A stretch of 64,000 nucleotides of DNA. Origin: a virus. This document shows, in pieces, positions 13,568-51,506 of this stretch (positions within the stretch are counted from its first letter, which is position 1; each line of letters opens with the position of its first letter). Position numbers and translations under genes: made by a program. Under the pieces are notes generated by a model, which saw only the letters and a program-made list of their open reading frames with translations, was not told where the DNA came from and did no database searches. The stretch is from IMG/VR virus record IMGVR_UViG_3300020220_003261, one strand, 5' to 3'.

Positions 13568-14340
13568 ATAGAATTTTTAAATATTTTTTTTGCGGCTCTA
13601 CTATGAAATTTCCACATTTCTTCTTCTGTTATTTTTCCCTTATTTAGTTCTTCTTTATAAAATAACTCTTCGTTATATACAAAACTTAAATAAGTAAACC
13701 TGTGAAAATCATTCTTTACGGGTTCTACTTCGTGTATAATATCGTGATTTAAAAAATCCATTATTACAAAATTATCAATTACAGGTTCTACTTTTTCTAG
13801 TTCATTTTCAGTCCTACCCACAACTAAATGTCCACCACCATCAATATAATCTTTTTTATCTGAAAGGTAAATTAAAATAACACAATATCTTTCAGGTGAC
13901 CTACCATCAAAATGCCTTTCGATAAAATCACCATTATCGTAGATGGTAAATGCGTCATGATGTTTTATATTATTTTGTAAATCAGGATATATTTTTGGTA
14001 AGAAACTATTCAAAGTATCCCTCATAAAAGATGTATGTTTTTCAAAATCACCACCTCCACCCTTTTCCCACCATTTTTGTATTATTCTATAATTATTTTT
14101 TTTTATATGATTTTGTCTTTCTTCAATTTCATCAAGACTTGTTACCCAATGTCTTTTATTTTCTTGATCAAGTTGTGGATATTGAAAACGGTATTTATAC
14201 CCTTTTCTAAATCTCGCATTGTAATCCTTGCCGTGTTCACGAACCTCTTCAGCAATTTTTTCAAAGGTTTCCATTTCTTTTATAATTTCATTGGTTTTAC
14301 CTATGTAATAACCACTTTCTAAATAGTCTTGTATATTCAT
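13564..14340 (-). CDS. 2OG-Fe(II) oxygenase (prolyl-4-hydroxylase-like)
   Basis: HFD, ILIYLS, GGHL, HEVEPV..RFT. Confidence 0.8.
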   Translation of the reverse strand: MNIQDYLESGYYIGKTNEIIKEMETFEKIAEEVREHGKDYNARFRKGYKYRFQYPQLDQENKRHWVTSLDEIEERQNHIKKNNYRIIQKWWEKGGGGDFEKHTSFMRDTLNSFLPKIYPDLQNNIKHHDAFTIYDNGDFIERHFDGRSPERYCVILIYLSDKKDYIDGGGHLVVGRTENELEKVEPVIDNFVIMDFLNHDIIHEVEPVKNDFHRFTYLSFVYNEELFYKEELNKGKITEEEMWKFHSRAAKKIFKNSI

Positions 14341-29644: not shown

Positions 29645-30151
29645 ATGATAAAAGTAATTGATAATATTTTAACTAAATCTGAGTTTTCTTTTCTAAAAAA
29701 AATTATTAACAACCCCAATTTCTATGCGGACAATAAACCACATACTAAGGTTGATTCAAAAAATTATTACAATCGTAAATTCATAACACCTACGGATAAT
29801 ATAGAAAAAAGGATATATGAGTGTTTAAAATTAGAATATGACTCGCTTAAATTCAAAATTTCTAATTGTTGGATAAACCATATATATGTGGATACAAACA
29901 AAAATGATAATTTTCATAAAGACAGTTCAGATGTTTCTACGGTACTTTTTTTAAATGAGGGATTTATTGGTGGTAATTTTGAATATAAAGATTTTAATGG
30001 TGATATTAATATTATAACACCGAAAGAAAATCGTTTAATCGTAATCGATAAAGAATGTTTACATAGAGTTAGCAACGTAATTGAAGGTAATAGATACACT
30101 TTTGTAGCGTTTTTACATTTTCAAGAAAAAACAAGTAAAACAATAATATGA
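29645..30151 (+). CDS. 2OG-Fe(II) oxygenase
   Basis: FHKD, VLFLNE.F.GG.F, HRVSNVIEGNRY; ends SKTII. Confidence 0.85.
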   Translation: MIKVIDNILTKSEFSFLKKIINNPNFYADNKPHTKVDSKNYYNRKFITPTDNIEKRIYECLKLEYDSLKFKISNCWINHIYVDTNKNDNFHKDSSDVSTVLFLNEGFIGGNFEYKDFNGDINIITPKENRLIVIDKECLHRVSNVIEGNRYTFVAFLHFQEKTSKTII

Positions 30152-32124: not shown

Positions 32125-32724
32125 GTGAATTATCCTTTTTATCAAGAAGTTATTTTTACGGGAGAAGAATGTAAAAAAATAATAGAATATTCTAAAAAAT
32201 ATCCGGCACTCGCTGAAAAGAGAAAATTAGAACCAAAAATAGATTTGACCACAGGTAGAGTAGAACAATTGTTCCAATCTAACGATGGTGATAAGAAAGG
32301 AAAGGCTTTCTTCGTTTATGATATTGTTAGAGATGAGACTACTGAATGGGTTTTTAAAAAACTATTAAATTGGTTTCAAATGGTTTCGGATATTAAATTA
32401 AAAGAAACGCCCGTAGTAAATGGTATGACTCTACTTAATTATAGAGTTGGTGATTTTTTTATGAAACATACGGATATATATGAAAATTTTGAGTGGAGAA
32501 GATGGACATTAAACATTCAATTAGGTAATCAATATAAAGGGGGTGATTATGTTTTGTATTTAGATGACAAAGAAGTTATCTTAAATAAAGATACGGGAAA
32601 CGCAATTGCATATTGGGCCGGTACTGAACACGAAATAAAAGAAATAGAAGAAGGAGAAAGGTGGTCTATTGTTTGTACTATTACTAAGTATATGATTGTT
32701 GAAAAAGAAAAGAAGTTATTTTAA
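32125..32724 (+). CDS. 2OG-Fe(II) oxygenase
   Basis: KHTD, YKGGDY, HEIKEIEEGERWS; GTG start; ends EKKLF. Confidence 0.85.
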   Translation: MNYPFYQEVIFTGEECKKIIEYSKKYPALAEKRKLEPKIDLTTGRVEQLFQSNDGDKKGKAFFVYDIVRDETTEWVFKKLLNWFQMVSDIKLKETPVVNGMTLLNYRVGDFFMKHTDIYENFEWRRWTLNIQLGNQYKGGDYVLYLDDKEVILNKDTGNAIAYWAGTEHEIKEIEEGERWSIVCTITKYMIVEKEKKLF

Positions 32725-35090: not shown

Positions 35091-35587
35091 TGAAGATTTT
35101 ATTAATAACCCTACCCAGAACAGGATCCACTTCATTATTAAAAAATTTATCAGAACAATATAATTTAAATGCAATAAGTGAACCATTCAACCCATCTACT
35201 AAAAATTTAGAACAATATAAAAATTTTGATTGGAATACTACAAATGAAATATGTGTTAAAACCCATATAAATCACAAAGACATATCATTCTATACAGATT
35301 TTGTAAAACTATTTGATAAAGTAATTTTAGTATCTAGAAAGGATTTAAAGTTGTGTGCTGAGAGTTTGGCATATGCAAATCATTTTGGAAATTTTAGTGA
35401 AAAATACAAATGGATTAATACACCTAATTTAACACATAATGTAAAATTAGTAAAAAAATTTGACGCAGATTTAAAAAAATTATCAGAACTAATTAATATT
35501 GATATATTATACTATGAAGATTTGTTTGATATAAATTCTGAAAATAAATTAAGAAAAAATGTTGTTAAAAGAAAAAATCTTATTTAG
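35090..35587 (+). CDS. Sulfotransferase-like P-loop protein
   Basis: LPRTGSTSL, EPFN, R.DL...AES, YYEDLF; ends KNLI. Confidence 0.65.
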   Translation: MKILLITLPRTGSTSLLKNLSEQYNLNAISEPFNPSTKNLEQYKNFDWNTTNEICVKTHINHKDISFYTDFVKLFDKVILVSRKDLKLCAESLAYANHFGNFSEKYKWINTPNLTHNVKLVKKFDADLKKLSELINIDILYYEDLFDINSENKLRKNVVKRKNLI

Positions 35588-36077
35588 TAAAAAAGAGTGT
35601 GAATATATTATTGAGTTATCTAAAAATTTACCAAATACTAAACCATACACTAGTAAAAGTGACCAATTTAAAGTTTCTTATGATGCTTGGAAATTAATTT
35701 TAGATAATAATTCTCAATGGATTTTTGATAAAATCACTCAATACTTTACATATGCAACTAATCTAAAAATAAAAAAAGAATTAAGTACGTTATATATCCA
35801 CAAATATAATGTAGGTCAACAATTTGAAAAGCATAACGATACGCAATATAAAACTCAAATACACAATGTAGGTGTATGTTTAAATGATGATTATGTAGGT
35901 GGTGATTTTATCTTATATAATCCAAAGGAAATACTACCGAAAAGACAAGGTGAAATATACACATTTCCTAGTAGTAGATTTCATGAGGTTGAACAAATAG
36001 TAAAGGGTGAACGATGGAGTATAATTGGATTTATACATATAGAAAATATTTATTTATCTAATAAAACTTTAATATGA
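35559..36077 (+). CDS. 2OG-Fe(II) oxygenase
   Basis: KHND, LNDDYVGGDF, HEVEQIVKGERWS; ends NKTLI. Confidence 0.85.
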   Translation: MLLKEKILFSKKECEYIIELSKNLPNTKPYTSKSDQFKVSYDAWKLILDNNSQWIFDKITQYFTYATNLKIKKELSTLYIHKYNVGQQFEKHNDTQYKTQIHNVGVCLNDDYVGGDFILYNPKEILPKRQGEIYTFPSSRFHEVEQIVKGERWSIIGFIHIENIYLSNKTLI

Positions 36078-38035: not shown

Positions 38036-38064
38036 TTGGTTTTTCCCTATTTTTTTCGTATATT
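38036..38064 (+). promoter_or_regulatory. sigma70-like promoter TTGGTT-17-TATATT, 7 nt before ATG 38072
   Basis: Read directly; mirrors the 29610 promoter, including ttttcg just before the -10 box. Confidence 0.55.
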
Positions 38065-38071
38065 TTATACG

Positions 38072-40798
38072 ATGAAAATACTCGCTCACGCCCCTTTTAT
38101 TGGAACGACTGGTTATGCTAATCATGCTCGTTCCTTTTTTTGTGCTCTAAACAAATATCATATTGTTAAAATACGTAATCTAACCATAGGAAATAGTTGG
38201 AAAGGAATGAACAATCGTCCACATGACGGCGAATCCTATTTCACTAAAGAAATGGAAAAAATGTTGATTTTACAAACACTACACAGATCTGATGGAAATG
38301 GTAGAATTGACGAACCCATGTATGGTTATAAAGGAGATTTTGTTCCTGATGTTCATATTGTTTTAATGGAAACTAATAATCATTATTTTTATGATGATTA
38401 TGAAGGTTATAAAATTGCGTATAATGTTTGGGAATCAACAAGATATCCTGAAGAATTTTTTCAAAGACTTTTTTATTTTGATGAGGTTTGGGTTCCGACT
38501 CAATGGCAGTTTGATTGTTTAGTTGAACAAGGATATCCATCTTATAAAATATTCGTAGTTCCCGAAGGTGTAGATGTAGATGTTTTTAAACCTATAAATA
38601 AATTTCCAAAAAGAGATAAGATTAGATTTGTCCTTTTTGGAAGATGGGACTATAGAAAGGGGACTACAGAAATTTTACAAGCATTCTCTGAGGAATTTAA
38701 AGATAACGATGATATCGAATTGTTAGCATCAGTTGAGAATCCGTATCCTTATGATGGTTTATATTCAACCGAAGAAAGAATTAAACATTACAATATAGAC
38801 ACAAAAAATATTCAGTTTTTAAAATTTCCATCAAGAGAACATTATGTAAATTATCTACAAACTGCACAAGTTTTTGTCTCATGTTCTAGAAGTGAGGGAT
38901 GGAATTTACCATTAATTGAGGCAATGGCGTGTGGAACACCATCAATATATTCAAACTGGGGTGGTCAATTACAGTTCGCAAAAGATAAGGGTATTCCTGT
39001 TGATATAAAAGGATTAAGACCTGCAAATATAGAACATAAAGAATGGCCTGGAGAATACTGTGAACCAGATTGGAAAGATCTCAGATATAAAATGAGGGAA
39101 GCTTACAACTATCATTCTGCTATGTGGATAAAAGCGGTAGATGACGCGAAAGATATTCATAAAAAATTTAATTGGAATACTATAGCCAAGGGTGCATCTG
39201 ATATTTTGACGAGAAATAAAAAACCATTTGCGTTTGTTACAACTGGCAACATTGGTTATATGCCAGTAATAGAAAAACTTGTTCAGTCATTATTAGAATT
39301 TTCTGAACAAAAAATTATTGTATATGGTGTAGATTGTGATGTTCCTTTTGATTATCCAAATGTAATTAAAAGAAGAATCAACCCACCAAAAATATCTGAA
39401 CACGATAAATGGTATTGGAAACAACATGCTTGTGCTGAATCACTGAAAGAAATTTTTGATTATTTTATTTGGATAGATGGTGATGTAGTTGTAAATTATA
39501 ACATAGACAATGTCCGTCAGTATTTCAATAAAGTTGGTAAATATCCATTGTCAGATATACACGTTCAAGAGGAATTTTTTGGTTTATATGACAAAGGAAA
39601 TAAATCACAATTGTTTAATCAACAATTAAGTCATGAATGGGGCGTAAAGAAATCAAATCCATACGCACATGTTTGTTTTTACATATATAATTTAGAATCT
39701 AAACTTTGGTTTGAAGAAATTATCAATCATTATGAAACTATAATGAAAAATAACCCGAGTGATTATAAAAGACTTTATTTATGGAACGATGAAGGAATAG
39801 ATAATGCAATGAGATGGAAATATGGTTTCACAAATCATTTACCATTATCTAATTTTGACACATCGTCATATGACGGTGATGAAGGGTATATAAATCAAAC
39901 TTTAAATCAATTTTATAAATTTTGGAATGAGGATGGACCACAAAATTTCAATAGAATATTTGGATATCAATTTATACCCAAAGATAAATCAAACATAATT
40001 TATTTTCACGGTAATAAAAACGCACAGGTATCTGATAAAATGATTGAATTTATAAAAATGAAAAGAGACAATTCTTTTTATAAATCGAAATGTTTTTATT
40101 GTGATCTTTATAAATTAGAAAACTTTGATAGCTTATTCGAATGTGAAGGAAGTACTTTAGATATTGCTGACAAATTTGGTTGGTCGGCGGCAATCTTTCA
40201 TGAAATATATAACCTGAGAGATTATTATAGGAATAGAGAAAAAAGAATACACGAGGGTGATATTGTCGTTGATTTAGGCGGAAATATTGGTATCTTTAAT
40301 AGATGGGCCTATAATGAAGGTGCAAGTAAAGTTATATCTTTTGAACCAGACAAAAGGTACTTTAAATTACTTTCATTAAATGCGGACCCACGTTCAATTT
40401 TGTTTAATGCAGCTGTTAGTAATCAAATAAATGAAATGACTTTATACGAGAGTACACACTTAGGTGGATCAAATTTATTTAGAATACAACAGAATTCAAC
40501 TTCGTATAGTGTTAGAACTTACAATTTAGATTATCTATTTGAGTCCAACTTAATTGATAGGATTGATTTTTTAAAGATTGATATCGAAGGTTCTGAACAC
40601 TATGCTCTATCAGGAATTAGTGATGAAAACTTGATGAAGGTAAAAACAATCTCGATTGAGTATCACCATTCACATTTTAATTATGATGAAGAACTAAGAC
40701 AGAAACTTATAAACAGAATGATTATACTCGGATTTAATTCTTATCTTATGTTTATGGGTTCAAATAATGCATCACAAATGATATATTTTAATAGATGA
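38072..40798 (+). CDS. Three-domain fusion: GT4 glycosyltransferase + GT-A (DxD) domain + FkbM methyltransferase
   Basis: SRSEGWNLPLIEAMACG (GT4); FIWIDGDVVV; VDLGGNIG..SFEP..LKIDIEGSE (FkbM). ATG 38072 preferred. Confidence 0.85.
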   Translation: MKILAHAPFIGTTGYANHARSFFCALNKYHIVKIRNLTIGNSWKGMNNRPHDGESYFTKEMEKMLILQTLHRSDGNGRIDEPMYGYKGDFVPDVHIVLMETNNHYFYDDYEGYKIAYNVWESTRYPEEFFQRLFYFDEVWVPTQWQFDCLVEQGYPSYKIFVVPEGVDVDVFKPINKFPKRDKIRFVLFGRWDYRKGTTEILQAFSEEFKDNDDIELLASVENPYPYDGLYSTEERIKHYNIDTKNIQFLKFPSREHYVNYLQTAQVFVSCSRSEGWNLPLIEAMACGTPSIYSNWGGQLQFAKDKGIPVDIKGLRPANIEHKEWPGEYCEPDWKDLRYKMREAYNYHSAMWIKAVDDAKDIHKKFNWNTIAKGASDILTRNKKPFAFVTTGNIGYMPVIEKLVQSLLEFSEQKIIVYGVDCDVPFDYPNVIKRRINPPKISEHDKWYWKQHACAESLKEIFDYFIWIDGDVVVNYNIDNVRQYFNKVGKYPLSDIHVQEEFFGLYDKGNKSQLFNQQLSHEWGVKKSNPYAHVCFYIYNLESKLWFEEIINHYETIMKNNPSDYKRLYLWNDEGIDNAMRWKYGFTNHLPLSNFDTSSYDGDEGYINQTLNQFYKFWNEDGPQNFNRIFGYQFIPKDKSNIIYFHGNKNAQVSDKMIEFIKMKRDNSFYKSKCFYCDLYKLENFDSLFECEGSTLDIADKFGWSAAIFHEIYNLRDYYRNREKRIHEGDIVVDLGGNIGIFNRWAYNEGASKVISFEPDKRYFKLLSLNADPRSILFNAAVSNQINEMTLYESTHLGGSNLFRIQQNSTSYSVRTYNLDYLFESNLIDRIDFLKIDIEGSEHYALSGISDENLMKVKTISIEYHHSHFNYDEELRQKLINRMIILGFNSYLMFMGSNNASQMIYFNR

Positions 40799-41454
40799 GT
40801 ACCTTAAACAAAATTGCACAATCGTATGGAACGGATAAAAGTTCAGATATACACAACTACTGTGTAAAATATGAAAAATATCTACCATTTAATAGATACG
40901 AAGAATTGAACATTTTAGAAATTGGAATCTTAAACGGTAAGTCACTTAAAACATGGAAAGAATATTACTATCGTTCTAAAATTGTCGGTATTGACATCAA
41001 TCCTGATTGTAAACAATATGAAGAAGAAAGAGTAAGTGTTGAAATTGGATCACAGGTAGATGGAAGTTTTCTATCTCGTGTTCGGCAACAATATGGTCCA
41101 TTTGATATGATATTAGATGATGGTTCACATATGAATTCACATGTTATATACTCTTTTCAAAACTTGTGGAAAAGCCTAAAATCTGGCGGTGTTTATATAA
41201 TAGAAGATTGTGGAACTGCATATTGGGAAGATTATGAGGGCGGTTATTTGAAACCAACAACAAGTGTTGAGGCATTTAAATCTTTAGTTGATGATGTAAA
41301 TTTTAGAGGACTAATGAATTTAGATAAACCAAATGTACATGCAAGAAGAGAAGATTGGTTAATAGAATTATCAAAAAAAACACAACCATTTTGTGTTGTG
41401 GATATCGAGTCAATAAACTTTTTAAACGGAATTATTATAATAACAAAAAGATAA
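40795..41454 (+). CDS. Sugar O-methyltransferase-like (MycE/Methyltransf_24-type)
   Basis: GTDK..HNY..YE, LEIGI..GKS, ILDDGSH, GGVYIIED. Confidence 0.85.
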   Translation: MSTLNKIAQSYGTDKSSDIHNYCVKYEKYLPFNRYEELNILEIGILNGKSLKTWKEYYYRSKIVGIDINPDCKQYEEERVSVEIGSQVDGSFLSRVRQQYGPFDMILDDGSHMNSHVIYSFQNLWKSLKSGGVYIIEDCGTAYWEDYEGGYLKPTTSVEAFKSLVDDVNFRGLMNLDKPNVHARREDWLIELSKKTQPFCVVDIESINFLNGIIIITKR

Positions 41455-43574
41455 TGGGATATACGTTCGAAGAGGATATTTTTGTAATTGATTGTTGGTT
41501 AGATACTGTCGAAAAGGAAAACACTCTATTAAAATTAATTGAAAGAATTAAAGTTTTTAATATACCAATAATTTTATGTGGGCATTTTCCTGTAAATCCA
41601 AAAATTCAGAAACAAGTTGATTATTTTATTTATGATAAAAATAATGATATTTTGTTGGAAAAAGATTTTAATCAGTATGAAGTAATGAGTGATAGGTGGT
41701 CAATTATGAATGACTATAAAGTTTTTAACAAAGTAGATTTTCATCATGACTATGCTATTTGGATCACTATGAAAAATGCTTTTAATTTAGTTAAACAACT
41801 AAATAAAAAATATATCCATTTTCTCGAATATGATAACATACCCGACGAAATTCAATATCGACAAGCTTTTATGGAATATATTAGAAACCACGATGCTGTT
41901 GTATATGAATATATGCCAGGTTCAACCAATCAAATGCAACCATATTGTTCGACATATATTTTTTCAATAAAAACCGATGTTGCATTATCAGTGATTAATA
42001 AAGTTAATAATAAAGAAGAGTATTTCAAAAATAGACCAAATGGTTGGCAATTAGAAAAAGTTTTCTTTCAAACGTTAAAAGGTGTGACAAGTAATATATT
42101 TGTAAGTAAGTATATACCTAATGATAATGAACTTAATATATATGCAGCTTGGAACAGAAATGGAATTTTAAAAAATGGTGCAATTTTTCAAACTTACTTG
42201 GCTGTAGACGAATCCAACAAATTACATATTCATTTCATTTCTGGATTTTCAGAAAAAGACGCTGATAAAGATTACTTATGTGAGATAAACTATTCAAACA
42301 CCAAATTTTTCTTTACTGTAAAAAGAAAACAATATCACTTAGAATTGTTGGGTGACTATATAGAAAATGAAACTGTTAGAGTTTTTTATCAGGGTATTGA
42401 AGTTTTCACACAAAAACTGACCGAAGATGTTATAAAATTTAAAAGAAAAAACATTTTAGAATGGAAAAATAAAGTATCAAATAGAAAGATAAATGTTCAT
42501 TTTATTGATGGTGCATATGTTGAAATATTGGACAACATACCTTTGAAATATAATGTTCAATTTATTGATAAAAAAAATAACAATATTGTTTATAGCACAG
42601 AATTAATCAGCAACCATTGGTGTAAGACTTCTTTGAAATATTATGTCGACTGGGAAATTAGGATAAAAGGAATAGATAACGATTATTTGGAATATCACAA
42701 TTTTACAACTGAGAATAATAAATTTTATATCTCTTTTGAGACAAAATCTTTGGGTGACACATTAGCTTTTATACCTTATGTTGAGGAATTTAGAAAAGAA
42801 AAAAAATGTAAAATAATATGTTCGACTTTCCATAATGAATTGTTCAGAAAACAGTATCCCGAAATTGAGTTTGTAAATCCTGGAACAAATGTTAACAATA
42901 TTATGGGTCTTTACAGATTAGGACTCTTTTATAATGGATCTAATGTTGATTATGAAAAACATCCTTATAATCCTCTTAAAGAACCGTTACAAAAAATTGC
43001 ATCAGATATACTAGGTTTAGACTACAAAGAAATTAAACCATTTTTACCAAAATTAGGAGGACATAAAAAGAAAAGAGTGTGTATTGCAATTCACTCTACA
43101 TCACAATGTAAATATTGGAATAACCCACATGGATGGCAAGAAGTAGTTGATTATATAAAATCCCAAGGATATGAAGTTAGGTTACTATCAAGAGAAGAAG
43201 ACGGTTACATGGGAAATAAAAACCCGAAAGGAATAAAACAACAACCAAATAGTTCAACTATCGAAATACTTAAAGTTCTACAAGAGTCACATTTATTTAT
43301 AGGAATAAGTAGTGGTTTGAGTTGGTTGGCATGGGCTTCAGATATACCTGTAATATTGGTATCGGGATTTACAGATGTTTATTTAGAACCATTTAAAGAT
43401 GTGACTAGAATTATAAATAAAGATGTGTGTAACGGATGTTGGCATAATCATAAGTTTGATCCGGGAGATTGGTATTGGTGTCCAATTCATAAAGGAACAG
43501 ACAAACAATACGAATGTTCAAAAGAAATAAGTGGGCAAAATGTTATTTCTTCGATAAAAAAATTTTTAGTTTAA
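41454..43574 (+). CDS. Autotransporter O-heptosyltransferase (Aah/TibC)-like protein with N-terminal extra GT-like domain
   Basis: KSLGDTLAFIPY, HSTSQCKYWNN..W, FIGISSGLSWLAW..VILVSGF, CNGCW..DWYWCPIH..QYECSK four-Cys motif. ATG 41454 preferred. Confidence 0.8.
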   Translation: MGYTFEEDIFVIDCWLDTVEKENTLLKLIERIKVFNIPIILCGHFPVNPKIQKQVDYFIYDKNNDILLEKDFNQYEVMSDRWSIMNDYKVFNKVDFHHDYAIWITMKNAFNLVKQLNKKYIHFLEYDNIPDEIQYRQAFMEYIRNHDAVVYEYMPGSTNQMQPYCSTYIFSIKTDVALSVINKVNNKEEYFKNRPNGWQLEKVFFQTLKGVTSNIFVSKYIPNDNELNIYAAWNRNGILKNGAIFQTYLAVDESNKLHIHFISGFSEKDADKDYLCEINYSNTKFFFTVKRKQYHLELLGDYIENETVRVFYQGIEVFTQKLTEDVIKFKRKNILEWKNKVSNRKINVHFIDGAYVEILDNIPLKYNVQFIDKKNNNIVYSTELISNHWCKTSLKYYVDWEIRIKGIDNDYLEYHNFTTENNKFYISFETKSLGDTLAFIPYVEEFRKEKKCKIICSTFHNELFRKQYPEIEFVNPGTNVNNIMGLYRLGLFYNGSNVDYEKHPYNPLKEPLQKIASDILGLDYKEIKPFLPKLGGHKKKRVCIAIHSTSQCKYWNNPHGWQEVVDYIKSQGYEVRLLSREEDGYMGNKNPKGIKQQPNSSTIEILKVLQESHLFIGISSGLSWLAWASDIPVILVSGFTDVYLEPFKDVTRIINKDVCNGCWHNHKFDPGDWYWCPIHKGTDKQYECSKEISGQNVISSIKKFLV

Positions 43575-43595
43575 GTTTTTTAATTGTAATATCCA

Positions 43596-43627
43596 ATATT
43601 TATATGAGTATAATACCATATAAATAT
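43596..43627 (+). promoter_or_regulatory. 11-bp perfect inverted repeat covering the tail-fibre start codon; 5' arm contains the TATTTATA motif
   Basis: ATATTTATATG (43596..43606) / CATATAAATAT (43617..43627); ATG at 43626. Confidence 0.55.
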
Positions 43628-46220
43628 GAAAATATTTCAGCCTTTAATAACTGGTTCGTTAAGTGTATCAGGCTCAACGACGATTAGTCAAGATTTAACA
43701 GTCCTTGGAACCATCAATGCGACGATTAGTGGTACCACAACAAACGCAATTACCGCTTCATATGCTTTAAATGCAGATACTATTGATAATATTGATTCAT
43801 TAAGATTAGCAACAACTGGAAGTAACACATTTAATGCAGATCAAACAGTAACTGGATCAATAAAGATTCAAGGAGATTTATACATTAACGGGACTCAGTA
43901 TACGGCTGCAACATCAGGAACCTCAGGAACAAGCGGTTCTTCTGGTTCATCAGGAACTTCAGGATCATCTGGTAGCTCTGGTTCGTCTGGTTCTTCTGGT
44001 AGCTCAGGTTCTTCGGGAACAAGCGGTTCTTCTGGTTCATCAGGAACAAGTGGTAGCTCAGGTACATCAGGAACCTCTGGTACAAGTGGAACATCAGGAA
44101 CTTCAGGATCATCTGGTAGCTCTGGTTCGTCTGGTTCTTCTGGTAGCTCAGGTTCTTCGGGAACTAGTGGAACATCTGGTTCATCAGGAACAAGTGGTAG
44201 CTCAGGTACATCAGGAACCTCTGGTACAAGTGGAACATCAGGATCATCAGGATCATCTGGATCGAGTGGTACTGTAACAATGACAGGAGCTCAAGATAAT
44301 GGTGTATTAACATTAAACGGTTCCTCTCCAAATGTGACCGCCGAAACTAATTTAACATTTGATGGCACAACATTAACTGTTACTGGTGACGTATTAATAA
44401 CAAATAATTTATTAGTACAAGGAACAAATACAAATTTACAAGTTACTCAATTGTTTATTGAGGACAAGACAATAACATTAGCTAGTGGTTCTTTAACAGC
44501 AGCAGCTGCCAATGGTGCAGGTATTGAGGTAGTTGGCCCAACAACAGCGGCAACAATCACATATACAAGTGCGAACGATAGTTGGAATACTAATAAAATA
44601 TTAAGAGTTCCTGAGTTATTCATAAATGGAACACAATATACTGCGGCAACCTCAGGTACAAGTGGTTCATCTGGTTCTTCGGGAACAAGTGGAACATCGG
44701 GATCAAGTGGTTCGTCTGGATCTTCTGGTAGCTCAGGTTCTTCGGGAACAAGTGGAACATCGGGATCAAGTGGTTCGTCTGGATCTTCTGGTTCATCAGG
44801 AACCTCTGGTACAAGTGGAACATCGGGATCAAGTGGTTCGTCTGGATCCTCTGGTAGCTCAGGTTCTTCGGGAACTTCAGGAAGTTCAGGTTCATCAGGA
44901 ACCTCAGGTAGTAGTGGTAGCTCAGGTTCATCTGGAACATCAGGTTCTTCTGGATCATCAGGAACCTCAGGTAGTAGTGGTAGCTCAGGTTCATCAGGAA
45001 CCTCAGGTAGTAGTGGTAGCTCAGGTTCATCTGGAACATCAGGTTCTTCTGGTTCATCAGGTTCATCAGGAACCTCAGGTAGTAGTGGTAGCTCAGGTTC
45101 ATCTGGAACATCAGGTTCTTCTGGTTCTTCTGGATCATCAGGAACCTCAGGTAGTAGTGGTAGCTCAGGTTCATCAGGTTCATCAGGAAGTTCTGGGTCA
45201 AGCGGATCAAGTGGATCAAGTGGATCAAGTGGATCATCAGGTACTTCAGTTTCAGTATCAGGAACTAACAATACATTAGTTAAATTCACATCAGCATCAA
45301 CAGTGGGTAATTCATCCATTACAGATGATGGTACAACAGTAACAATTGGTGGTAACTTAGTTATTTCAGGTACACAAACAACAGTTAACTCAACAACCGT
45401 TAATATTGCTGATAATATTATTCAATTAAATGGTACTGGAGCAACAAACGCAGGTTTAGTTGTAAGAGACGCTACCGCATCTACGTTGGTATCAGGTTCA
45501 TTTTTGTGGGATACAACAAATGATAAATGGATTGCGGGTCCGTTAGGATCTGAAGATGATGTTGTATTAAAAACAGCATCGCAAACTTTAACGAATAAAA
45601 CAATTAACGCTTCCCAATTAGTTGATGCATCTGTAACAAATGCTAAATTAACTAACTCATCTTTAACAGTTACGGCTGGTACAGGTATGAGTGGTGGAGG
45701 ATCAGTTGCATTAGGGTCATCGGTAACATTAACAAATGCCGGTGTGACATCGGCGGTTGCAGGAACGGGTGTTAGTGTAAGTGCCGGAACAGGAGCGGTA
45801 ACAATTTCAATTGGTCAAGCCGTAGCGACCAACTCGAATGTTCAATTTAACGCTTTAGGTGTTGGAACCGCTGCACCAAACACGGCAGGTTTGATTAGAG
45901 CAACAAATGACGTAATTGCTTTCTATGGCTCAGATATAAGATTAAAAGAAAATATAACACCTATATCTAATCCAATCGAAAAGTTAAAACAAATAAATGG
46001 TTACGAATTTGATTGGATTCCTTTAGAGGGTATTCACGAAAATGAAGGTCATGATATTGGAGTGGTTGCTCAAGAGATTGAAGAAGTCTTACCTGAAATT
46101 GTAACAACAAGAGATAATGGTTATAAGGCTGTTAAGTATGAAAAACTTGTGGCGTTATTAATCGAATCTAATAAAGAATTACTTAGGAAAATTGAAATAC
46201 TTGAGAATAAACTTAGGTAA
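43626..46220 (+). CDS. Phage tail fibre with two Ser/Thr-Gly triplet tracts and C-terminal peptidase S74 intramolecular chaperone
   Basis: SDIRLKENI..GYEFDW..DIGVVAQE.E.VLPE..YKAVKYEKLVALLIE; (S/T)SG repeats. Confidence 0.9.
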   Translation: MKIFQPLITGSLSVSGSTTISQDLTVLGTINATISGTTTNAITASYALNADTIDNIDSLRLATTGSNTFNADQTVTGSIKIQGDLYINGTQYTAATSGTSGTSGSSGSSGTSGSSGSSGSSGSSGSSGSSGTSGSSGSSGTSGSSGTSGTSGTSGTSGTSGSSGSSGSSGSSGSSGSSGTSGTSGSSGTSGSSGTSGTSGTSGTSGSSGSSGSSGTVTMTGAQDNGVLTLNGSSPNVTAETNLTFDGTTLTVTGDVLITNNLLVQGTNTNLQVTQLFIEDKTITLASGSLTAAAANGAGIEVVGPTTAATITYTSANDSWNTNKILRVPELFINGTQYTAATSGTSGSSGSSGTSGTSGSSGSSGSSGSSGSSGTSGTSGSSGSSGSSGSSGTSGTSGTSGSSGSSGSSGSSGSSGTSGSSGSSGTSGSSGSSGSSGTSGSSGSSGTSGSSGSSGSSGTSGSSGSSGSSGTSGSSGSSGSSGTSGSSGSSGSSGTSGSSGSSGSSGTSGSSGSSGSSGSSGSSGSSGSSGSSGSSGSSGTSVSVSGTNNTLVKFTSASTVGNSSITDDGTTVTIGGNLVISGTQTTVNSTTVNIADNIIQLNGTGATNAGLVVRDATASTLVSGSFLWDTTNDKWIAGPLGSEDDVVLKTASQTLTNKTINASQLVDASVTNAKLTNSSLTVTAGTGMSGGGSVALGSSVTLTNAGVTSAVAGTGVSVSAGTGAVTISIGQAVATNSNVQFNALGVGTAAPNTAGLIRATNDVIAFYGSDIRLKENITPISNPIEKLKQINGYEFDWIPLEGIHENEGHDIGVVAQEIEEVLPEIVTTRDNGYKAVKYEKLVALLIESNKELLRKIEILENKLR
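43911..44273 (+). repeat. (S/T)-S-G tripeptide tract 1 (about 120 aa) with 144-bp DNA periodicity
   Basis: caggaacttcaggatcatctggtagctctgg... at both 43951 and 44095. Confidence 0.9.
44649..45245 (+). repeat. (S/T)-S-G tripeptide tract 2 (about 200 aa) with multiple DNA-level repeat units
   Basis: ggaacctcaggtagtagtggtagctcaggttcatc recurs several times between about 44900 and 45180. Confidence 0.9.
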
Positions 46221-46531: not shown

Positions 46532-46978
46532 ATGAAATTAAAGTATAAGAGTTTTTCTTGCAAATACGAATTATATTATATAACTTGGAATGGAATTAAT
46601 TTCGATAAAGATAAACTTATAAAATTAACAAATAGATTAAAATTACTAAAATTCACATCTCTTTTATTTAAATCACATAAAGAAGAATTAAGAATTTTAA
46701 AAGAAATATATTCATCTTATGATGAAAAAGTTCTGATAGGTCTATTAAATAATGATGAGAAAATTTGTAGAAATGGTTTTATAGAAAAATGGGCAAGAAT
46801 TGGTGCAATAGATATTTTATTGACGGGTGTTTATAGTAGAAATACATTTACAACAATAAGTAACTTACCAGTTGAGGACTATCAATTAATATGTAAAAGA
46901 ATTGAGGAATTAGTAAATTACGGAAGAAACTTAACATATCAACAAGATAAAATTAGTAACAATATACCTGGATTATGA
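46532..46978 (+). CDS. Hypothetical protein
   Basis: Long ORF coupled to the next gene; TATATT 6 nt before ATG 46532. Confidence 0.7.
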   Translation: MKLKYKSFSCKYELYYITWNGINFDKDKLIKLTNRLKLLKFTSLLFKSHKEELRILKEIYSSYDEKVLIGLLNNDEKICRNGFIEKWARIGAIDILLTGVYSRNTFTTISNLPVEDYQLICKRIEELVNYGRNLTYQQDKISNNIPGL

Positions 46979-47616
46979 ATAAATCATTTTATAGTCAATC
47001 AATGTGGTCTGGTTTACCGAGAAAATTATCAATATTAGTTCCAACAAGGGATATGATTCATTCTCATTTTGCATATTGTTTAACACAACTTATCAAAACC
47101 ACAAATCAAAATAATATTGATACATATCTTTTTTTTGATTCAAGTACAATTTTATTAAATCAAAGAACAAATTTGATCAAGAAATCTTTAGAGGTTAAAT
47201 CTGATTATTTGTTATGGTTAGACAGTGATATGATGTTTCCGTCAAGCACCGCATTAAGATTATTAAATCATAATAAAGATATTGTAGCGTGTAATTACAT
47301 AAAAAGAACTAAACCACAAAACCCAGTTGCTTATAAAGATATTACAGATTTTAATAGTTTTATACCGCTAACACCTCAAGAAGAGTTAGTTGAAGTAGAA
47401 GGAATAGGAATGGGTTGTATGTTAATGAAGACAGATATATTCAACCAATTAGATAAACCTTACTTCAAATTTATTTATAAGGAAGATACAGATGATTGGC
47501 ATGGAGAAGATTTTGATATGTTATCAAGATTTAGAAAACTTGGGTATACCATTTATGTTGATTCTTTATTGAGTTTAGAAATAAAACATTTGGGTAACCA
47601 AGCATTTGGTGTTTAA
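46975..47616 (+). CDS. GT2-like (GT-A) glycosyltransferase
   Basis: LLWLDSDMMFP, GIGMGCMLMK..F, GEDF..GYTIYVD..HLG. Confidence 0.75.
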   Translation: MNKSFYSQSMWSGLPRKLSILVPTRDMIHSHFAYCLTQLIKTTNQNNIDTYLFFDSSTILLNQRTNLIKKSLEVKSDYLLWLDSDMMFPSSTALRLLNHNKDIVACNYIKRTKPQNPVAYKDITDFNSFIPLTPQEELVEVEGIGMGCMLMKTDIFNQLDKPYFKFIYKEDTDDWHGEDFDMLSRFRKLGYTIYVDSLLSLEIKHLGNQAFGV

Positions 47617-48722
47617 ATTTCTTTTTTAATTTCGATTAACATATTACCTATATTATATTGATTAGGTTTATATTCAGGAATTGATAATCTTAATTTTTGT
47701 AATGTATAAACATCTTCATCTGTAAATGGTGAGGTTTCATAAATTATTACATCCACCATGTCAGTTAAAGTAAATTTACTTCTCAAATCGTATCTAGTAT
47801 TCTTCTGTTCGTTTTCAATATAGTCATCAGGTATTATACCTAAATCTATCTTATCAAAAAAAGGTTCAATTTCATATAACCTATTACAATTTCTTGTTAA
47901 TAAAGACATTGTGAATGTTTTAAATTTAAACGGGTTATCCTCCCAATATCTCATCTCATTAAATGCGGATATTGGTATTCCCCATTTCCTCACAAAGTTT
48001 CTATTTGATGATATTTCATATTTAAATCTATCGTTTTTATAATCGTTTCCGAATCTAGATGTTTGAGAAACAAAATGATATGTTATTGCACATTCAGTTG
48101 TTTTTAGATCGTAACCTTTCAATTTAGCACGGATTAAAAAATCATCATCCTCACAAAAACAAGGAATAAAACTGAATCCATCAAACATCCCAACATCTTC
48201 AAACATTTTTTTATATCCACTCATAAAAAAAACTGCGCCATCATATAGTGTTATGTCATTTTTGTGATCTTCGACATAACTATCAAAAGATATGTAATCA
48301 AATTCTTGAAATGTTCTACCCATATCAATTAAAACTTTACCTGGCCTTCTATGTGTGGTAAAAATTGGAGGTTCAATTGTTGTATAACACAAAACCATTT
48401 TCTCATTTAACAACCTATCAATATTTTCTAAGAAATTTTTACCAATGACCATGTCATTGTGAATTAAAACTAATTTTTCGGTATCAACAAGATTAATACC
48501 TGTGTTATATGTTTCAGAAAATGTTAATCTATCATCATCATGAAATATTGTGAGATAATCATCTTCATTTGATGTATTTTCTAACCATTGTTTAGTCCCA
48601 TCATATGACCCACCGCTACTAATTACAATTGGAATTTTAGGGTATATTTCACGTATTCTTTTATAACAATTTTTTGTTAATTCTAAATTATTATAAACCG
48701 CTAAAACAAAACTTATGTCCAT
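47613..48722 (-). CDS. GT2 family glycosyltransferase
   Basis: SFVLAVYNN, LIHNDM, FCEDDDF, YHFVSQT. Confidence 0.85.
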   Translation of the reverse strand: MDISFVLAVYNNLELTKNCYKRIREIYPKIPIVISSGGSYDGTKQWLENTSNEDDYLTIFHDDDRLTFSETYNTGINLVDTEKLVLIHNDMVIGKNFLENIDRLLNEKMVLCYTTIEPPIFTTHRRPGKVLIDMGRTFQEFDYISFDSYVEDHKNDITLYDGAVFFMSGYKKMFEDVGMFDGFSFIPCFCEDDDFLIRAKLKGYDLKTTECAITYHFVSQTSRFGNDYKNDRFKYEISSNRNFVRKWGIPISAFNEMRYWEDNPFKFKTFTMSLLTRNCNRLYEIEPFFDKIDLGIIPDDYIENEQKNTRYDLRSKFTLTDMVDVIIYETSPFTDEDVYTLQKLRLSIPEYKPNQYNIGNMLIEIKKEI

Positions 48723-49567
48723 TTACTCAAATATGCTTTTATATAGTCATCAATATTTTTTACAGGATTCCAACCTAAAAGTTCTTTTGCTAAAAAAGAT
48801 TCACATAAAGTTTCTTGTGATTCTCCAGGTAAATCCTCTGAGTAAATTTTTTCTTTACCATACATTTCTGCAATTTCATTTATAGAATAATTATGACCTC
48901 TTCCAAATTCAAAGACATTACCCCAACTTTCTTTTTCTTTAATTTTTATTAAACCATCAACAATATCTTCAACATGAGTAAAATCTCTTCTTTTTTCTCC
49001 ATTACCATAAATCGTTAAAGGATTGTTGTTTTCGATTAAATTTTCCCATCTACCAATTAATGTTGTATAACCACCCGTTTTTAAATGATATGGACCATAA
49101 ACATTATAAAATCTAGCAATTGAACATTTTAATTTAAAATGTTCTTGATAAAGTTTAATTATTTCTTCACCGATGTCTTTACTGAAAGTATATGGATTTT
49201 TAAACTTACCTGAGTGATGTGAACTACTACCAGCATAAATAAGGGGAACATTATTTTTGGAACAATATTCAACTATTTCAAATGTTCCGTTTGCATTCAC
49301 ATCAAAGTATTCTTTAGGATTTTTAAAAGATGGTTGTATTCTTGCAACTGCAGCCAAATGATAAATTACATCAATATTTTTACAATTTCCCCAAGAGTTA
49401 AATCTTCTAATATCATCTTCCAAATATTTTATGGCACCATCAATATGATTATCTTTCAAACCTGTTGTGTAATTGTCTATTGATATTATAAAATGACCCT
49501 CATTTAATAACCTTTTAATTAAATTGGTTCCAACAAAACCAGCTCCACCCGTTACAATAATTCTCAT
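48713..49567 (-). CDS. NAD-dependent epimerase/dehydratase
   Basis: VTGGAGFVG, HLAA, YTFSK, RFYNVYGP, RDFTHVED. ATG 49567 preferred. Confidence 0.9.
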   Translation of the reverse strand: MRIIVTGGAGFVGTNLIKRLLNEGHFIISIDNYTTGLKDNHIDGAIKYLEDDIRRFNSWGNCKNIDVIYHLAAVARIQPSFKNPKEYFDVNANGTFEIVEYCSKNNVPLIYAGSSSHHSGKFKNPYTFSKDIGEEIIKLYQEHFKLKCSIARFYNVYGPYHLKTGGYTTLIGRWENLIENNNPLTIYGNGEKRRDFTHVEDIVDGLIKIKEKESWGNVFEFGRGHNYSINEIAEMYGKEKIYSEDLPGESQETLCESFLAKELLGWNPVKNIDDYIKAYLSKWT

Positions 49568-50535
49568 TTTGAATATATTTTCAACCAATGTTCAATCATT
49601 TCATCCATCATAGATTCGAAAGTATATTCTGGTTTCCAACCTAAAATATTTCTAACCTTAGATGAATCTCCTTTAAGATAGGATAATTCTTCAGGTCGTA
49701 AAAATTTTTGATTTTGGATTATATATTCTTGATAATCCAAACCTAATGTTTCAAAAACATATTTACACATGTCTCTTACTGATCTACTTTCCCCTGTTGC
49801 GACAACAAAATCATCTGGTGATGTGTGATTATTAATCAAATGCATAGCCTTTACATAATCTTTAGAATGCCCCCAATCTCTATATGCATCCAAATTTCCT
49901 AACTCTAAACTTTTTTGTAATCCAAGTTTTATTCTTACTGCAGCCTTCACAACTTTATTTGTGACAAAGTTGGACCCCCTTCTTGGAGATTCATGATTAA
50001 AAAGAATACCATTTGTTGCAAACAAATTATATGCATGTCTATAATTTCTAACAATATTATACCCAAACACTTTTGTGCAACCATATGGTGATACTGGTGT
50101 CATTCTTGTTGTTTCTCTTTGAAATCCATCATCGTCTACGGAGGAACCAAACATCTCAGATGAAGAGGCTTGATAAAATCTAGCATTCGGACATGAAGTT
50201 CTATACGCCTCCAACATATTTAAAACTCCCACCGCATTTGATTGAGCTGTAAAAATTGGAATATCAAAACTAATTCTTACATGTGACTGTGCACCAATAT
50301 TATAAATTTCATCAGGTTGTATTTGATCTAACAATCTGTGTAAGGTAGAATAATCGATAAGATCACCATAATAAGTTTTTACCTTATCTTCAAGATGTCC
50401 AATTCTACTTTCTTGATGTTCTGGTGTTGAATTTCTCCTAACAATACCATGTATTTCATATCCTAAATCTAATAAGTGTTCGGCTAAATAACTTCCGTCT
50501 TGTCCCGCAATACCCGTGATAAATGCTTTCTTCAT
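49564..50535 (-). CDS. gmd: GDP-mannose 4,6-dehydratase
   Basis: ITGIAGQDGSYLAE, AQSHVRISF, QASSSEMFG, SPYGCTK, FNHESPRRG.FVT, RDWGH. Confidence 0.95.
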   Translation of the reverse strand: MKKAFITGIAGQDGSYLAEHLLDLGYEIHGIVRRNSTPEHQESRIGHLEDKVKTYYGDLIDYSTLHRLLDQIQPDEIYNIGAQSHVRISFDIPIFTAQSNAVGVLNMLEAYRTSCPNARFYQASSSEMFGSSVDDDGFQRETTRMTPVSPYGCTKVFGYNIVRNYRHAYNLFATNGILFNHESPRRGSNFVTNKVVKAAVRIKLGLQKSLELGNLDAYRDWGHSKDYVKAMHLINNHTSPDDFVVATGESRSVRDMCKYVFETLGLDYQEYIIQNQKFLRPEELSYLKGDSSKVRNILGWKPEYTFESMMDEMIEHWLKIYSK

Positions 50536-51506
50536 TTTATATTTTTTAATATGTTAATATCATTTTTTACCATTTTTTCAACCATCTCTTCAAATTTTGT
50601 TTTAGGTTCCCATCCCAAAATGTTTTTTGCCTTTGAATAATCACCTCTAATTGCATCCATTTCAATCGGTCTAATAAACTTCGGATCTACCTTAATATAT
50701 TTTGTCCATTCAGATTCACCAATGAAATTAAAAGCAATGTTTAACAAATCCTCTATTGTTCTAGATTTATTGGTCGATAAAATATAATCATCAGGATTTT
50801 CTTGTTGTAACATCAACCACATACCCTCAACAAAATCGAGTGAATAACCCCAATCTTTCGCAATTTTTATATTTCCTAATGTTATTGAGTCAGATAAACC
50901 TAAATGAATTTTAGCAACACCGTTTGTTATTTTTCTTACAACAAATCTAACACCTCTTCTTTCACTTTCATGATTAAATGCAATTCCACTACAGTTAAAC
51001 ATTCCATATGATTCTCTATAATTTTTAGTAATCCAATGTGCATATAATTTAGCAACAGCATATGGCGATTTTGGATATAATGGTGTTGTTTCCTTAACAG
51101 GGTTTTCATACATTTTACCAAACATTTCTGATGAAGATGCTTGATAAAATTTTAAGTCTTTATTTCCGTGTTCCCTTATTGCATCTAATAATCTGAGAAC
51201 ACCTAATCCGGTTATATTTGCCTGTGATTCGGGTGTCATCCAACTATCACCAACAAAAGACTGTGCTGCAAAGTTATAGACTTCGTCTGGATTAGATTCC
51301 TTTAAACATTTTGAAAGAGAACTTCCATCGACTAAATCACCTTTAAGAAATGTAACTTTACCAATTAAATGTGATGAGTTTATTCTGTTTTCTTCGGATT
51401 CAGTTCTTTCCATACCAAAAACTTCGTAACCTTTTGACAATAAAAAATCTGCCAAATGAGATCCGTCCATACCATTTATTCCAGTAATAAGTGCTCTTCT
51501 ATTCAT
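50532..51506 (-). CDS. gmd: GDP-mannose 4,6-dehydratase (second copy)
   Basis: ITGINGMDGSHLAD, AQSFVGDS, QASSSEMFG, SPYAVAK, FNHESERRG. Confidence 0.9.
   Translation of the reverse strand: MNRRALITGINGMDGSHLADFLLSKGYEVFGMERTESEENRINSSHLIGKVTFLKGDLVDGSSLSKCLKESNPDEVYNFAAQSFVGDSWMTPESQANITGLGVLRLLDAIREHGNKDLKFYQASSSEMFGKMYENPVKETTPLYPKSPYAVAKLYAHWITKNYRESYGMFNCSGIAFNHESERRGVRFVVRKITNGVAKIHLGLSDSITLGNIKIAKDWGYSLDFVEGMWLMLQQENPDDYILSTNKSRTIEDLLNIAFNFIGESEWTKYIKVDPKFIRPIEMDAIRGDYSKAKNILGWEPKTKFEEMVEKMVKNDINILKNIK

Follow-up and report, generated by a model that had tools for sequence, protein, structure and literature searches.

The enzyme and fibre genes

We analysed a stretch of DNA of 64,000 nucleotides from a large uncultured lake phage (IMG/VR record IMGVR_UViG_3300020220_003261; the whole stretch is called the window here), in which a gene for a TibC/Aah-type (BAHT) glycosyltransferase is directly followed by a gene for a tail fibre. 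The open reading frame (ORF) map and the translations placed the enzyme gene at 41454-43574 (+), encoding 706 aa, and the fibre gene at 43626-46220 (+). An earlier note on this DNA had interpreted the pair as a protein O-heptosyltransferase and its substrate, and had put the enzyme stop 51 nt before the fibre; the distance was exact. The parts of the two genes were as follows.

41454..42173 (+), GT-A or nucleotide-diphospho-sugar-transferase fold, enzyme residues 1-240, with an E-Y-D (DxD-like) motif at 125-127 (AlphaFold2 (AF2) model, fold searches)
42186..42473 (+), extra beta-sandwich linker domain, enzyme residues 245-340 (AF2 model; strands 245-321; predicted local distance difference test score, pLDDT, mostly 81-97)
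42480..43562 (+), complete TibC/Aah-type (BAHT) module, enzyme residues 343-703: beta-barrel, GT-B catalytic domain, thumb and four-Cys iron finger (TIGR04414, 4RAP)
43575..43625 (+), AT-rich 51-nt spacer from enzyme to fibre (sequence)
43626..43916 (+), N-terminal part of the fibre, residues 1-97, probable attachment (translation; tail-fibre PHROGs match the whole protein)
43917..44276 (+), collagen-like tract 1, aa 98-217, 40 Gly-(Ser/Thr)-Ser triplets, proposed acceptor (Pfam Collagen, triplet count)
44277..44654 (+), beta-rich spacer between the tracts, aa 218-343 (translation)
44655..45248 (+), collagen-like tract 2, aa 344-541, 66 Gly-(Ser/Thr)-Ser triplets, proposed acceptor (Pfam Collagen, triplet count)
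45249..45929 (+), Ser/Thr/Gly/Ala-rich distal shaft and tip, residues 542-768 (distal tail-fibre PHROGs 8215, 5668 and 11011)
45930..46220 (+), Peptidase S74 intramolecular chaperone, then the stop codon (Pfam Peptidase_S74, PF13884, 2e-16, 60.4 bits, residues 769-826)

The C-terminal module of the enzyme was compared with the autotransporter heptosyltransferase family by a hidden Markov model search, a check that the earlier note had proposed. Residues 343-703 matched TIGR04414 (hepto_Aah_TibC) over model positions 9-373 of 374 with 288.5 bits (E 6.9e-86), above the curated cut-off of 200, and lipopolysaccharide (LPS) heptosyltransferase models gave only about 26 bits. The same residues aligned with the whole TibC chain of PDB 4RAP (E 2.3e-58). 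TibC has an iron finger, a beta-hairpin thumb with two successive hydrophobic residues and a dodecameric ring (PMC4358343). Residue roles in TibC were taken from Yao et al. 2014 (PMC4358343) and mapped by alignment onto the phage protein. The catalytic base Asp110 corresponded to D435, the beta-phosphate-binding Thr226 and Lys230 to T549 and K553, and Trp305, which contacts the heptose O4, to W624. The iron-finger residues Cys339/342/358/370 aligned with C659/C662/C676/C688, so that the Aah/TibC-like motifs and the four-Cys metal motif reported from the letters alone were both borne out. The thumb tip Phe265-Val266 was Y585-M586 and the thumb contact Phe368 was Y686. At the stereo-selectivity position, Pro300 in TibC and Ser294 in Aah, the phage protein had Ser619, as in Aah. 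The adenine N1 contact Arg286 was not kept and was replaced by Ile605.

Across 82 aligned domains, the positions of D110, K230 and W305 were identical in all, the T226 position was Thr or Ser in 81, and the four Cys were kept in 81, the exception being a gap. When phage and bacterial members were taken together, the catalytic Asp, Lys230, Trp305 and the four iron-finger Cys were each kept in 114-116 of 116 members per column. By these alignments the enzyme is a true relative of the bacterial adhesin-glycosylating TibC. Automatic pipelines already name such genes "autotransporter strand-loop-strand O-heptosyltransferase".

The first 340 residues of the enzyme had no Pfam or PHROGs match, ESM Atlas gave only weak GT25/WavE leads for the N-terminal domain, and a search for shorter stand-alone homologues of it returned mostly fragments. 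An alignment was needed for modelling: single-sequence AF2 of the N-terminal 349 residues reached a pLDDT of 36, and the model built on a 27-sequence alignment reached 90. With this model, VIA-align gave Z 14-15 to GT2, hyaluronan synthase, GlmU and IspD, and the best Foldseek matches were GT6, LH3/ColGalT1 and GlcAT-P, with E of about 1e-5 to GT6, GT2 and LH3. The E125-Y126-D127 motif directly followed the fourth strand (120-125), and D127 was nearly invariant. The nucleotidyltransferases IspD and GlmU scored as well as glycosyltransferases did; a glycosyltransferase was favoured because no Gly-rich N-terminal loop was seen by eye, and on this model residues 1-240 are probably a second glycosyltransferase. 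Many other fusion proteins with a TibC-like domain contained the GT-A module too, and its place in them varied. In nine phage BAHT genes scanned from other lineages, further domains were present in all nine, and in seven these were other glycosyltransferases.

The repeats of the fibre, given earlier as about 320 residues of (S/T)SG, were counted as 318 residues in two tracts, and they form 106 strict Gly-X-Y triplets, a register that had gone unmentioned. Position X was Ser in 70 and Thr in 36 triplets, position Y was Ser in 105 and Val in one, and the tracts present 105 Ser-Gly steps without any Pro, Lys or charged residue. They matched Pfam Collagen (PF01391) with E 3e-44. The fibre is thus collagen-like by its Gly-X-Y register, and the triple helix is putative in the absence of Pro. 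The spacer between the tracts ends in I-N-G-T-Q-Y-T-A-A-T-S, the same lead-in that precedes tract 1. The protein matched many tail-fibre PHROGs, and no autotransporter or AIDA domain was found in it with Pfam or PHROGs. In the C-terminal S74 domain, Ser769 and Lys774 lie within S-D-I-R-L-K, and we take them to be the self-cleavage dyad of this family. S74 chaperones cut themselves off after trimerisation. This chaperone, the collagen-like nature of the repeats and the N-terminal transferase domain were additions to what had been noticed before.

At tract 2 the G+C content rose to 42%, the rest of the window having about 28%. Tract 2 also contained long ORFs in other frames or on the other strand, at 44447-45319 (-), 44620-45237 (-) and 44626-45279 (+); these are most likely artefacts of the Gly/Ser codon repeats.

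Recurrence of the gene pair in phages and bacteria

An enzyme-centred scan of IMG/VR yielded 79 phage loci with 1.26 Mb of flanks. In the cluster of the window, a same-strand Ser/Thr-collagen ORF started within 2.5 kb downstream in 25 of the 26 loci with enough sequence, usually 63-78 nt past the enzyme stop, and the same arrangement was present at a locus with 46% enzyme identity (L034). A further cluster, 38-41% identical, had a downstream Ser/Thr-collagen ORF in 11 of 16 loci. There the enzyme was a GT4-GT2-BAHT(-FkbM) fusion of 1000-1300 aa, a 129-aa DUF6165 ORF preceded the fibre, and the fibre carried up to 417 Gly-(Thr/Ser)-(Ser/Asp/Gln/Asn) triplets. The rest of these flanks held about seven Ser/Thr-collagen ORFs.

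The reverse scan used the non-collagen tip of the fibre (aa 553-864) as query and returned 78 loci. A TibC-like gene was present in the locus for 18 of 23 Ser/Thr-collagen fibres, for two of eight fibres with ordinary or mixed collagen, and for two of 47 non-collagen fibres; both of the last belonged to one phage, in which a different Ser/Thr-collagen ORF precedes the enzyme by 1 kb. Two near-complete phages with a Ser/Thr-collagen fibre and no nearby enzyme carried one or two enzyme copies elsewhere, in one of them again directly followed by another Ser/Thr-collagen fibre. No TibC-like gene was found in the whole record of five phages with non-collagen fibres, two of which were 100% complete. 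The reverse scan also revealed further deep enzyme lineages (L133/L146, L108/L126/L122 and L107), and the five members scanned were all GT4 fusions. The cultured Microcystis phage Mel-JY01 (L001, PP395634.1) encodes an FkbM-GT-A-BAHT fusion with a Gly-Thr/Ser-Ser ORF 1.7 kb upstream.

Bacterial relatives were collected by a prokaryote scan with a profile of the phage domains, using one genome per species, which gave 80 loci with 8-kb flanks. Of the 36 closest bacterial homologues, 22 had Gly-Ser/Thr-Ser ORFs of 120-870 aa in these flanks, most within about 2 kb, and such an ORF was present for one of the remaining 44 matches. The closest set included methanotrophs, Arenicellales (one complete chromosome) and Burkholderiales. 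In bacteria the substrate gene directly follows the BAHT gene (PMC4358343), and we found this classical order, with the BAHT gene directly before the substrate autotransporter gene, in E. coli and on Pantoea plasmids. In the window the fibre occupies the slot that the substrate gene holds in bacteria.

A FastTree of 116 domains was divided into two branches with support 1.0; the trees were quick ones (IQ-TREE and FastTree), with the deep branch order provisional. The classical branch held Enterobacteria, Paraburkholderia, Selenomonadales and Lentisphaeria, and Arg286 was kept in all but two of its members. All collagen-associated phage and bacterial members fell in the second branch. In the sub-branch of the window, the Arg286 position was I, V, L, M, T or A in phage and bacterial members alike, and in the clade of the window a conserved Lys stood two residues past it; Arg was present at this position in the classical branch and in other phage clades. 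Two BAHTs on phage contigs that grouped with the bacterial ones precede AIDA-repeat/Hint proteins (L059:7234-8562 + and L069:2117-7387 +), in which Pfam detected AIDA repeats and a Hint domain and no autotransporter barrel.

Together, the recurrence of TibC-like genes beside Ser/Thr-Gly fibres, which the earlier note had proposed to look for across phage genomes, was found there and also in bacteria. As the pairing spans enzymes of 35-48% identity, differing fusion architectures, and both phages and bacteria, it is difficult to account for unless enzyme and fibre are functionally linked.

Several loci from these scans showed features of their own. The 129-aa DUF6165 ORF (L054:10852-11241 +) always lay between enzyme and fibre in the marine clade, and in another lineage (L036:9980-12451 +) the TibC-like protein itself carries DUF6165 at its C-terminus, which makes DUF6165 a candidate accessory factor. 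One fibre ORF (L126:2-10423 +), with a length of 3474 aa or more, contained 1103 Gly-X-Y triplets with 95% Ser/Thr at X and Y, and a GT4-BAHT fusion lay 7.5 kb downstream of it. In Mel-JY01, the open frame of Gly-Thr/Ser-Ser triplets (2-3052 +, at least 1016 aa) runs off the record start; the gene annotation covers just the final 534 bases of it, leaving the first 2.5 kb unannotated, and the opposite-strand 'hypothetical' coding sequences at 1-651 and 739-2298 resemble repeat artefacts. The 'cytidylyltransferase-like' protein of this phage had no match among solved structures. A 238-kb contig labelled as a Pseudobdellovibrionaceae metagenome-assembled genome (L165, JBIIER010000003.1) encodes a TibC-like domain 56% identical to that of the window with an adjoining Ser/Thr-collagen ORF; the contig probably stems from a jumbo phage and entered the bacterial genome at binning.

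Acceptor, donor sugar and competing explanations

From these comparisons we consider it fairly probable that the 706-aa protein is a two-headed protein glycosyltransferase and that its main substrate is the adjoining collagen-like fibre. We infer from the intact catalytic set that the TibC-type module would be an active protein O-glycosyltransferase. In the proposed mechanism, this C-terminal GT-B module, with Asp435 as the base, would transfer a sugar from a nucleotide-sugar to Ser of the Gly-(Ser/Thr)-Ser triplets. The residue that TibC modifies is Ser rather than Thr, within N-S-G-G and T-S-A-A, and peptides can serve it as acceptors in vitro (PMC4358343). Since TibC takes Ser at sites followed by Gly or Ala and works on peptides, the Ser of the triplets is, by analogy, the proposed site of the first sugar. 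The transfer would take place in the cytoplasm of the host, either ahead of fibre assembly or in the course of it. Extension or decoration of the first sugar would then fall to the fused GT-A domain, to the coupled methyltransferase, and to the GT4-FkbM and Anp1-like neighbours. The earlier note had likewise suggested that the first sugar would prime the fibre for extension by the island, and this fits the GT-A fusion and the further domains carried by all nine BAHT genes from other phage lineages. The fibre would trimerise via the S74 chaperone, which then would cut itself off. The order of the sugar additions, and any ring-shaped oligomer of the enzyme, are presumed.

Several observations weigh against glycosylation of the fibre as set out above. 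The support is all comparative. A collagen triple helix is very unlike the beta-helix strand-loop-strand acceptor of AIDA-I and TibA, and the 340-residue N-terminal extension may be at odds with the TibC dodecameric ring. Phage BAHT lineages L036, L038-040 and L064-080 had no collagen-like neighbour within 10 kb, and neither had L027 and L031, which lie inside the clade of the window. Gene order in phages is inherited, so part of the recurrences are not independent and the events are fewer than the loci. Two further points concern the donor: Arg286, needed for TibC activity, is Ile605, so that either the donor differs or its binding is rearranged, and neither gmhA nor gmhB was found in the window or in two relatives with 100% and 97% completeness. 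The earlier claim of an enzyme-substrate pair, with the phage O-glycosylating its own fibre, is retained as the reading best supported by comparison.

We further considered if the sugar was heptose; the earlier note had named the enzyme an O-heptosyltransferase and allowed for a host-derived donor or a different NDP-sugar. In TibC, a hydrogen bond from Arg286 to adenine N1 underlies the specificity for ADP-sugars, and mutants at this residue had little or no activity (PMC4358343). Because this adenine-reading Arg is replaced by Ile in the sub-branch of the window, the donor is possibly not ADP-heptose. Pfam scans covered 66 window ORFs with a length of 100 aa or more, all but three short ones (102-135 aa), and none of the 66 was an ADP-heptose gene (GmhA/SIS, PfkB kinase, HAD phosphatase or HldE-type nucleotidyltransferase), in agreement with what had been noted before. 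The short-chain dehydrogenase/reductase (SDR) at 48713-49588 was considered as an ADP-heptose 6-epimerase and rejected, as it scored 102 bits against a cut-off of 275 and other SDR families fitted no worse. Of the assignment as an O-heptosyltransferase, the family membership held; its heptosyl part became doubtful, given the change of Arg286 to Ile and the absence of a committed heptose-pathway gene from the window and two near-complete relatives. Overall, heptose is possible as the sugar of the window enzyme, with the balance tilted against it, and a new donor is probable on the sequence pattern.

Two other phages with TibC-like genes, both complete or nearly so, carried genes of interest for donor synthesis. 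A 336-kb, 100% complete phage genome of the clade of the window (G001) contained overlapping genes for a 139-aa cytidylyltransferase-family protein and a 254-aa PfkB-type kinase (L246:1477-2638 -). The kinase match was weak, and its best solved match was heptose-7-phosphate kinase, over the first 50 residues only; the pair may be a diverged donor-activation pair, and no homologue of either gene occurred in the window. The second phage (G006; 270 kb, 99% complete) had two TibC-like genes and Ser/Thr-collagen fibres, and one of its BAHT copies kept Arg286. It also encoded a genuine D-beta-D-heptose-7-phosphate kinase homologue (L245:1477-2451 +; TIGR02198, 314 bits; PDB 4E84, E 1e-49), alone between a T4-type portal gene and a DNA ligase gene; no GmhB was found in this genome, where no gmhA search was made. 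Since this phage has both the heptose kinase and an Arg286-keeping copy, heptose is plausible in other branches.

Two other explanations were weighed, each with only a small chance of being right. The enzyme might glycosylate the fibre at Ser in its beta-rich non-collagen parts (aa 1-97, 218-343 and 542-768), with the collagen tracts only as spacers. The known family recognises a beta-strand, a short loop and a beta-strand (as in the TIGR04414 name and the TibA Ser176 loop model), and those parts of the fibre are rich in short Ser/Thr-Gly turns between hydrophobic strands. However, it was the Gly-Ser/Thr-Ser tract, not other fibre parts, that recurred beside 35-48% identical enzymes, and among fibres with the same tip and no tract the enzyme accompanied only the two of 47 given above. 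Moreover, the small bacterial neighbour ORFs (130-330 aa) carry triplet runs in which Ser and Thr make up 0.8-0.98 of the X and Y positions.

It is equally improbable that the enzyme acts elsewhere, on other virion proteins, a host surface protein, or a lipid- or LPS-linked acceptor, and adjoins the fibre through a shared glycan island. This explanation draws on the island of about 60 kb with many transferases, on phage BAHT genes that lie among transferase genes with no fibre near (L071 and L076), and on GT9 relatives such as WaaC and WaaF, which act on LPS. The adjacency was nevertheless specific to Ser/Thr-collagen ORFs in both search directions and at the level of whole genomes, and it was also found in bacterial contigs including the complete Arenicellales chromosome, although their glycan-island context was not assessed. 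The LPS heptosyltransferase match of about 26 bits also compares poorly with the 288 bits for the protein-modifying family.

It is highly improbable that the module no longer transfers sugar and is a decaying gene or a ring-shaped assembly or holding factor for the fibre: Arg286, which TibC needs, is lost, and no donor pathway was found in the window and near-complete relatives, but nearly all 116 members retain the catalytic Asp, Lys230, Trp305 and the iron-finger Cys, the gene is intact and fused to another transferase, and the change from Arg to a hydrophobic residue is common to a large, long-lived sub-branch, with a conserved Lys two residues on in the clade of the window. This pattern argues for altered specificity rather than decay.

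Glycosylation of the fibre at the triplets, the explanation we prefer, can be extended to a broader proposal, which is speculative and which we think unlikely to hold in full. A TibC/Aah branch of large aquatic phages and environmental bacteria would be dedicated to Pro-free Gly-Ser/Thr-Ser rods, the sub-branch of the window would have switched from ADP-heptose to a different nucleotide-sugar, and a dense Ser-linked glycan would replace the role of hydroxyproline, stabilising the Pro-free triple helix. The enzyme would then be an obligatory factor of fibre maturation, beyond decoration.

Known systems and the surrounding glycan island

The closest known systems are TibC-TibA and Aah-AIDA-I of E. 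coli (PDB 4RAP/4RB4; PMC4358343). The likeness comprises homology over the whole chain, the catalytic Asp, the Thr/Lys/Trp set, the iron finger and the hydrophobic thumb tip, an enzyme gene directly upstream of a gene for a long, repetitive, Ser-rich surface fibre, and a reaction that would be cytoplasmic on a protein later displayed outside. The systems differ in the neighbour, a Gly-X-Y tail fibre with an S74 chaperone in the phage and a beta-helical autotransporter in E. coli. In addition, the phage enzyme has the extra 340 residues (GT-A domain and beta-sandwich) and Ile for Arg286, and falls in a separate tree branch of phages and environmental bacteria.

BclA of Bacillus anthracis and related exosporium proteins (for example PMC6222408) form a trimeric collagen-like filament on a particle surface, and their Gly-X-Thr repeats are heavily O-glycosylated by dedicated cytoplasmic transferases. 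Unlike the phage fibre, BclA is a spore protein and has Pro in its repeats (Gly-Pro-Thr); it carries rhamnose, N-acetylgalactosamine and anthrose, and its enzymes are outside the TibC family. Mycobacteriophages likewise use phage transferases to glycosylate their own structural proteins (Freeman et al. 2023, PMC10527164, cited in PMC12619734); in contrast to the present case, other transferase families act there on the C-termini of the capsid and tail tube, and neither a collagen-like fibre nor a BAHT enzyme takes part. Animal LH3 and ColGalT1 and the collagen-modifying enzymes of Mimivirus glycosylate the collagen triple helix, and LH3 and ColGalT1 were among the Foldseek matches of the N-terminal domain. 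These enzymes act on hydroxylysine, whereas the fibre tracts have neither Lys nor Pro, and the fold match is a generic GT-A one (6-11% identity) that does not imply kinship.

The enzyme family and the gene order, with the enzyme before a repetitive surface substrate, are known. The multi-transferase architecture is new, and the substrate class would be new as well. Our literature search found no paper on phage TibC-like enzymes or on heptosylated or glycosylated collagen-like phage fibres. To our knowledge, phage glycosylation of own virion proteins has so far been described mainly in mycobacteriophage capsids and tail tubes, and the TibC/Aah family is known to us only as a virulence-linked modifier of enterobacterial adhesins. 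If the proposal is correct, an abundant group of lake and marine phages makes sugar-coated collagen-like fibres with a repurposed adhesin glycosyltransferase, and the TibC/Aah family gains a second substrate class, the Gly-X-Y rod, and probably a second donor specificity. This would bear on the protease resistance of the fibre, on avoidance of sticking, on host recognition, and on the stabilisation of collagen helices that lack Pro. With a small gene pair, and the same module in the cultured phage Mel-JY01, the proposal is directly testable.

The window has about 28% G+C and closely packed genes, and by Pfam it consists almost entirely of one glycan island, about 60 kb long. The transferases of the island include GT2, GT4, GT7, NodZ-like, TOD1-like and Anp1-like members. 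The island also encodes several SDR epimerases/reductases, an RmlC-like epimerase, a nucleotide-sugar dehydrogenase, a carbamoyltransferase, an adenosine-phosphosulfate (APS)-kinase-like protein, methyltransferases, radical-SAM (S-adenosylmethionine) enzymes and 2-oxoglutarate (2OG)-Fe(II) oxygenases. A megablast of the region against isolated phages returned only an unrelated epimerase match. The genes nearest to the pair were as follows.

38036..40798 (+), 920-aa GT4 glycosyltransferase-FkbM-type methyltransferase fusion, two genes upstream in the same gene string (Pfam Glycos_transf_1, 6.8e-15; Methyltransf_21, 2.5e-17)
40795..41454 (+), 219-aa SAM-dependent methyltransferase (Pfam Methyltransf_24, 2.3e-7)
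46975..47616 (+), 213-aa Anp1/GT-A-like transferase, kept downstream of the fibre in close relatives (Pfam Anp1, 4.9e-8)

The first ATG of the enzyme overlaps the stop of the methyltransferase gene by one base (TAATG), and many relatives have a methyltransferase and the enzyme as one in-frame fusion protein of about 895-930 aa. Other phage lineages, Mel-JY01 among them, have the domain types of the 920-aa fusion (GT4 and FkbM) joined to the TibC-like domain itself. Relatives also had a conserved pair of 147-aa and 211-aa ORFs after the fibre. The 149-aa ORF after the fibre in the window was compared with the DUF6165 ORF of the marine clade and rejected as unrelated.

No terminator-like hairpin was found in the 51-nt spacer between enzyme and fibre, and promoter and terminator scans were uninformative, with promoter-like sites rarer than in shuffled sequence. 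The T4 late-promoter consensus TATAAATA occurred at 43618-43627, just before and overlapping the fibre ATG; it may be a chance match in such AT-rich DNA, and is too near the ATG to serve it.

Four genes for prolyl-hydroxylase-type 2OG-Fe(II) oxygenases lie in the island, at 13564-14340 (-), 29645-30151 (+), 32125-32724 (+) and 35559-36077 (+). Their substrates are unexplained, as the tracts of the island's collagen-like fibre hold no Pro or Lys. Two tandem GDP-mannose-4,6-dehydratase paralogues at 49564-51506 (-) scored 382 and 378 bits, just below the equivalog cut-off of 415. They adjoin an SDR and a 200-aa DegT-family ORF that matched only the middle third of its model, and together these genes suggest synthesis of GDP-6-deoxy or amino sugars.

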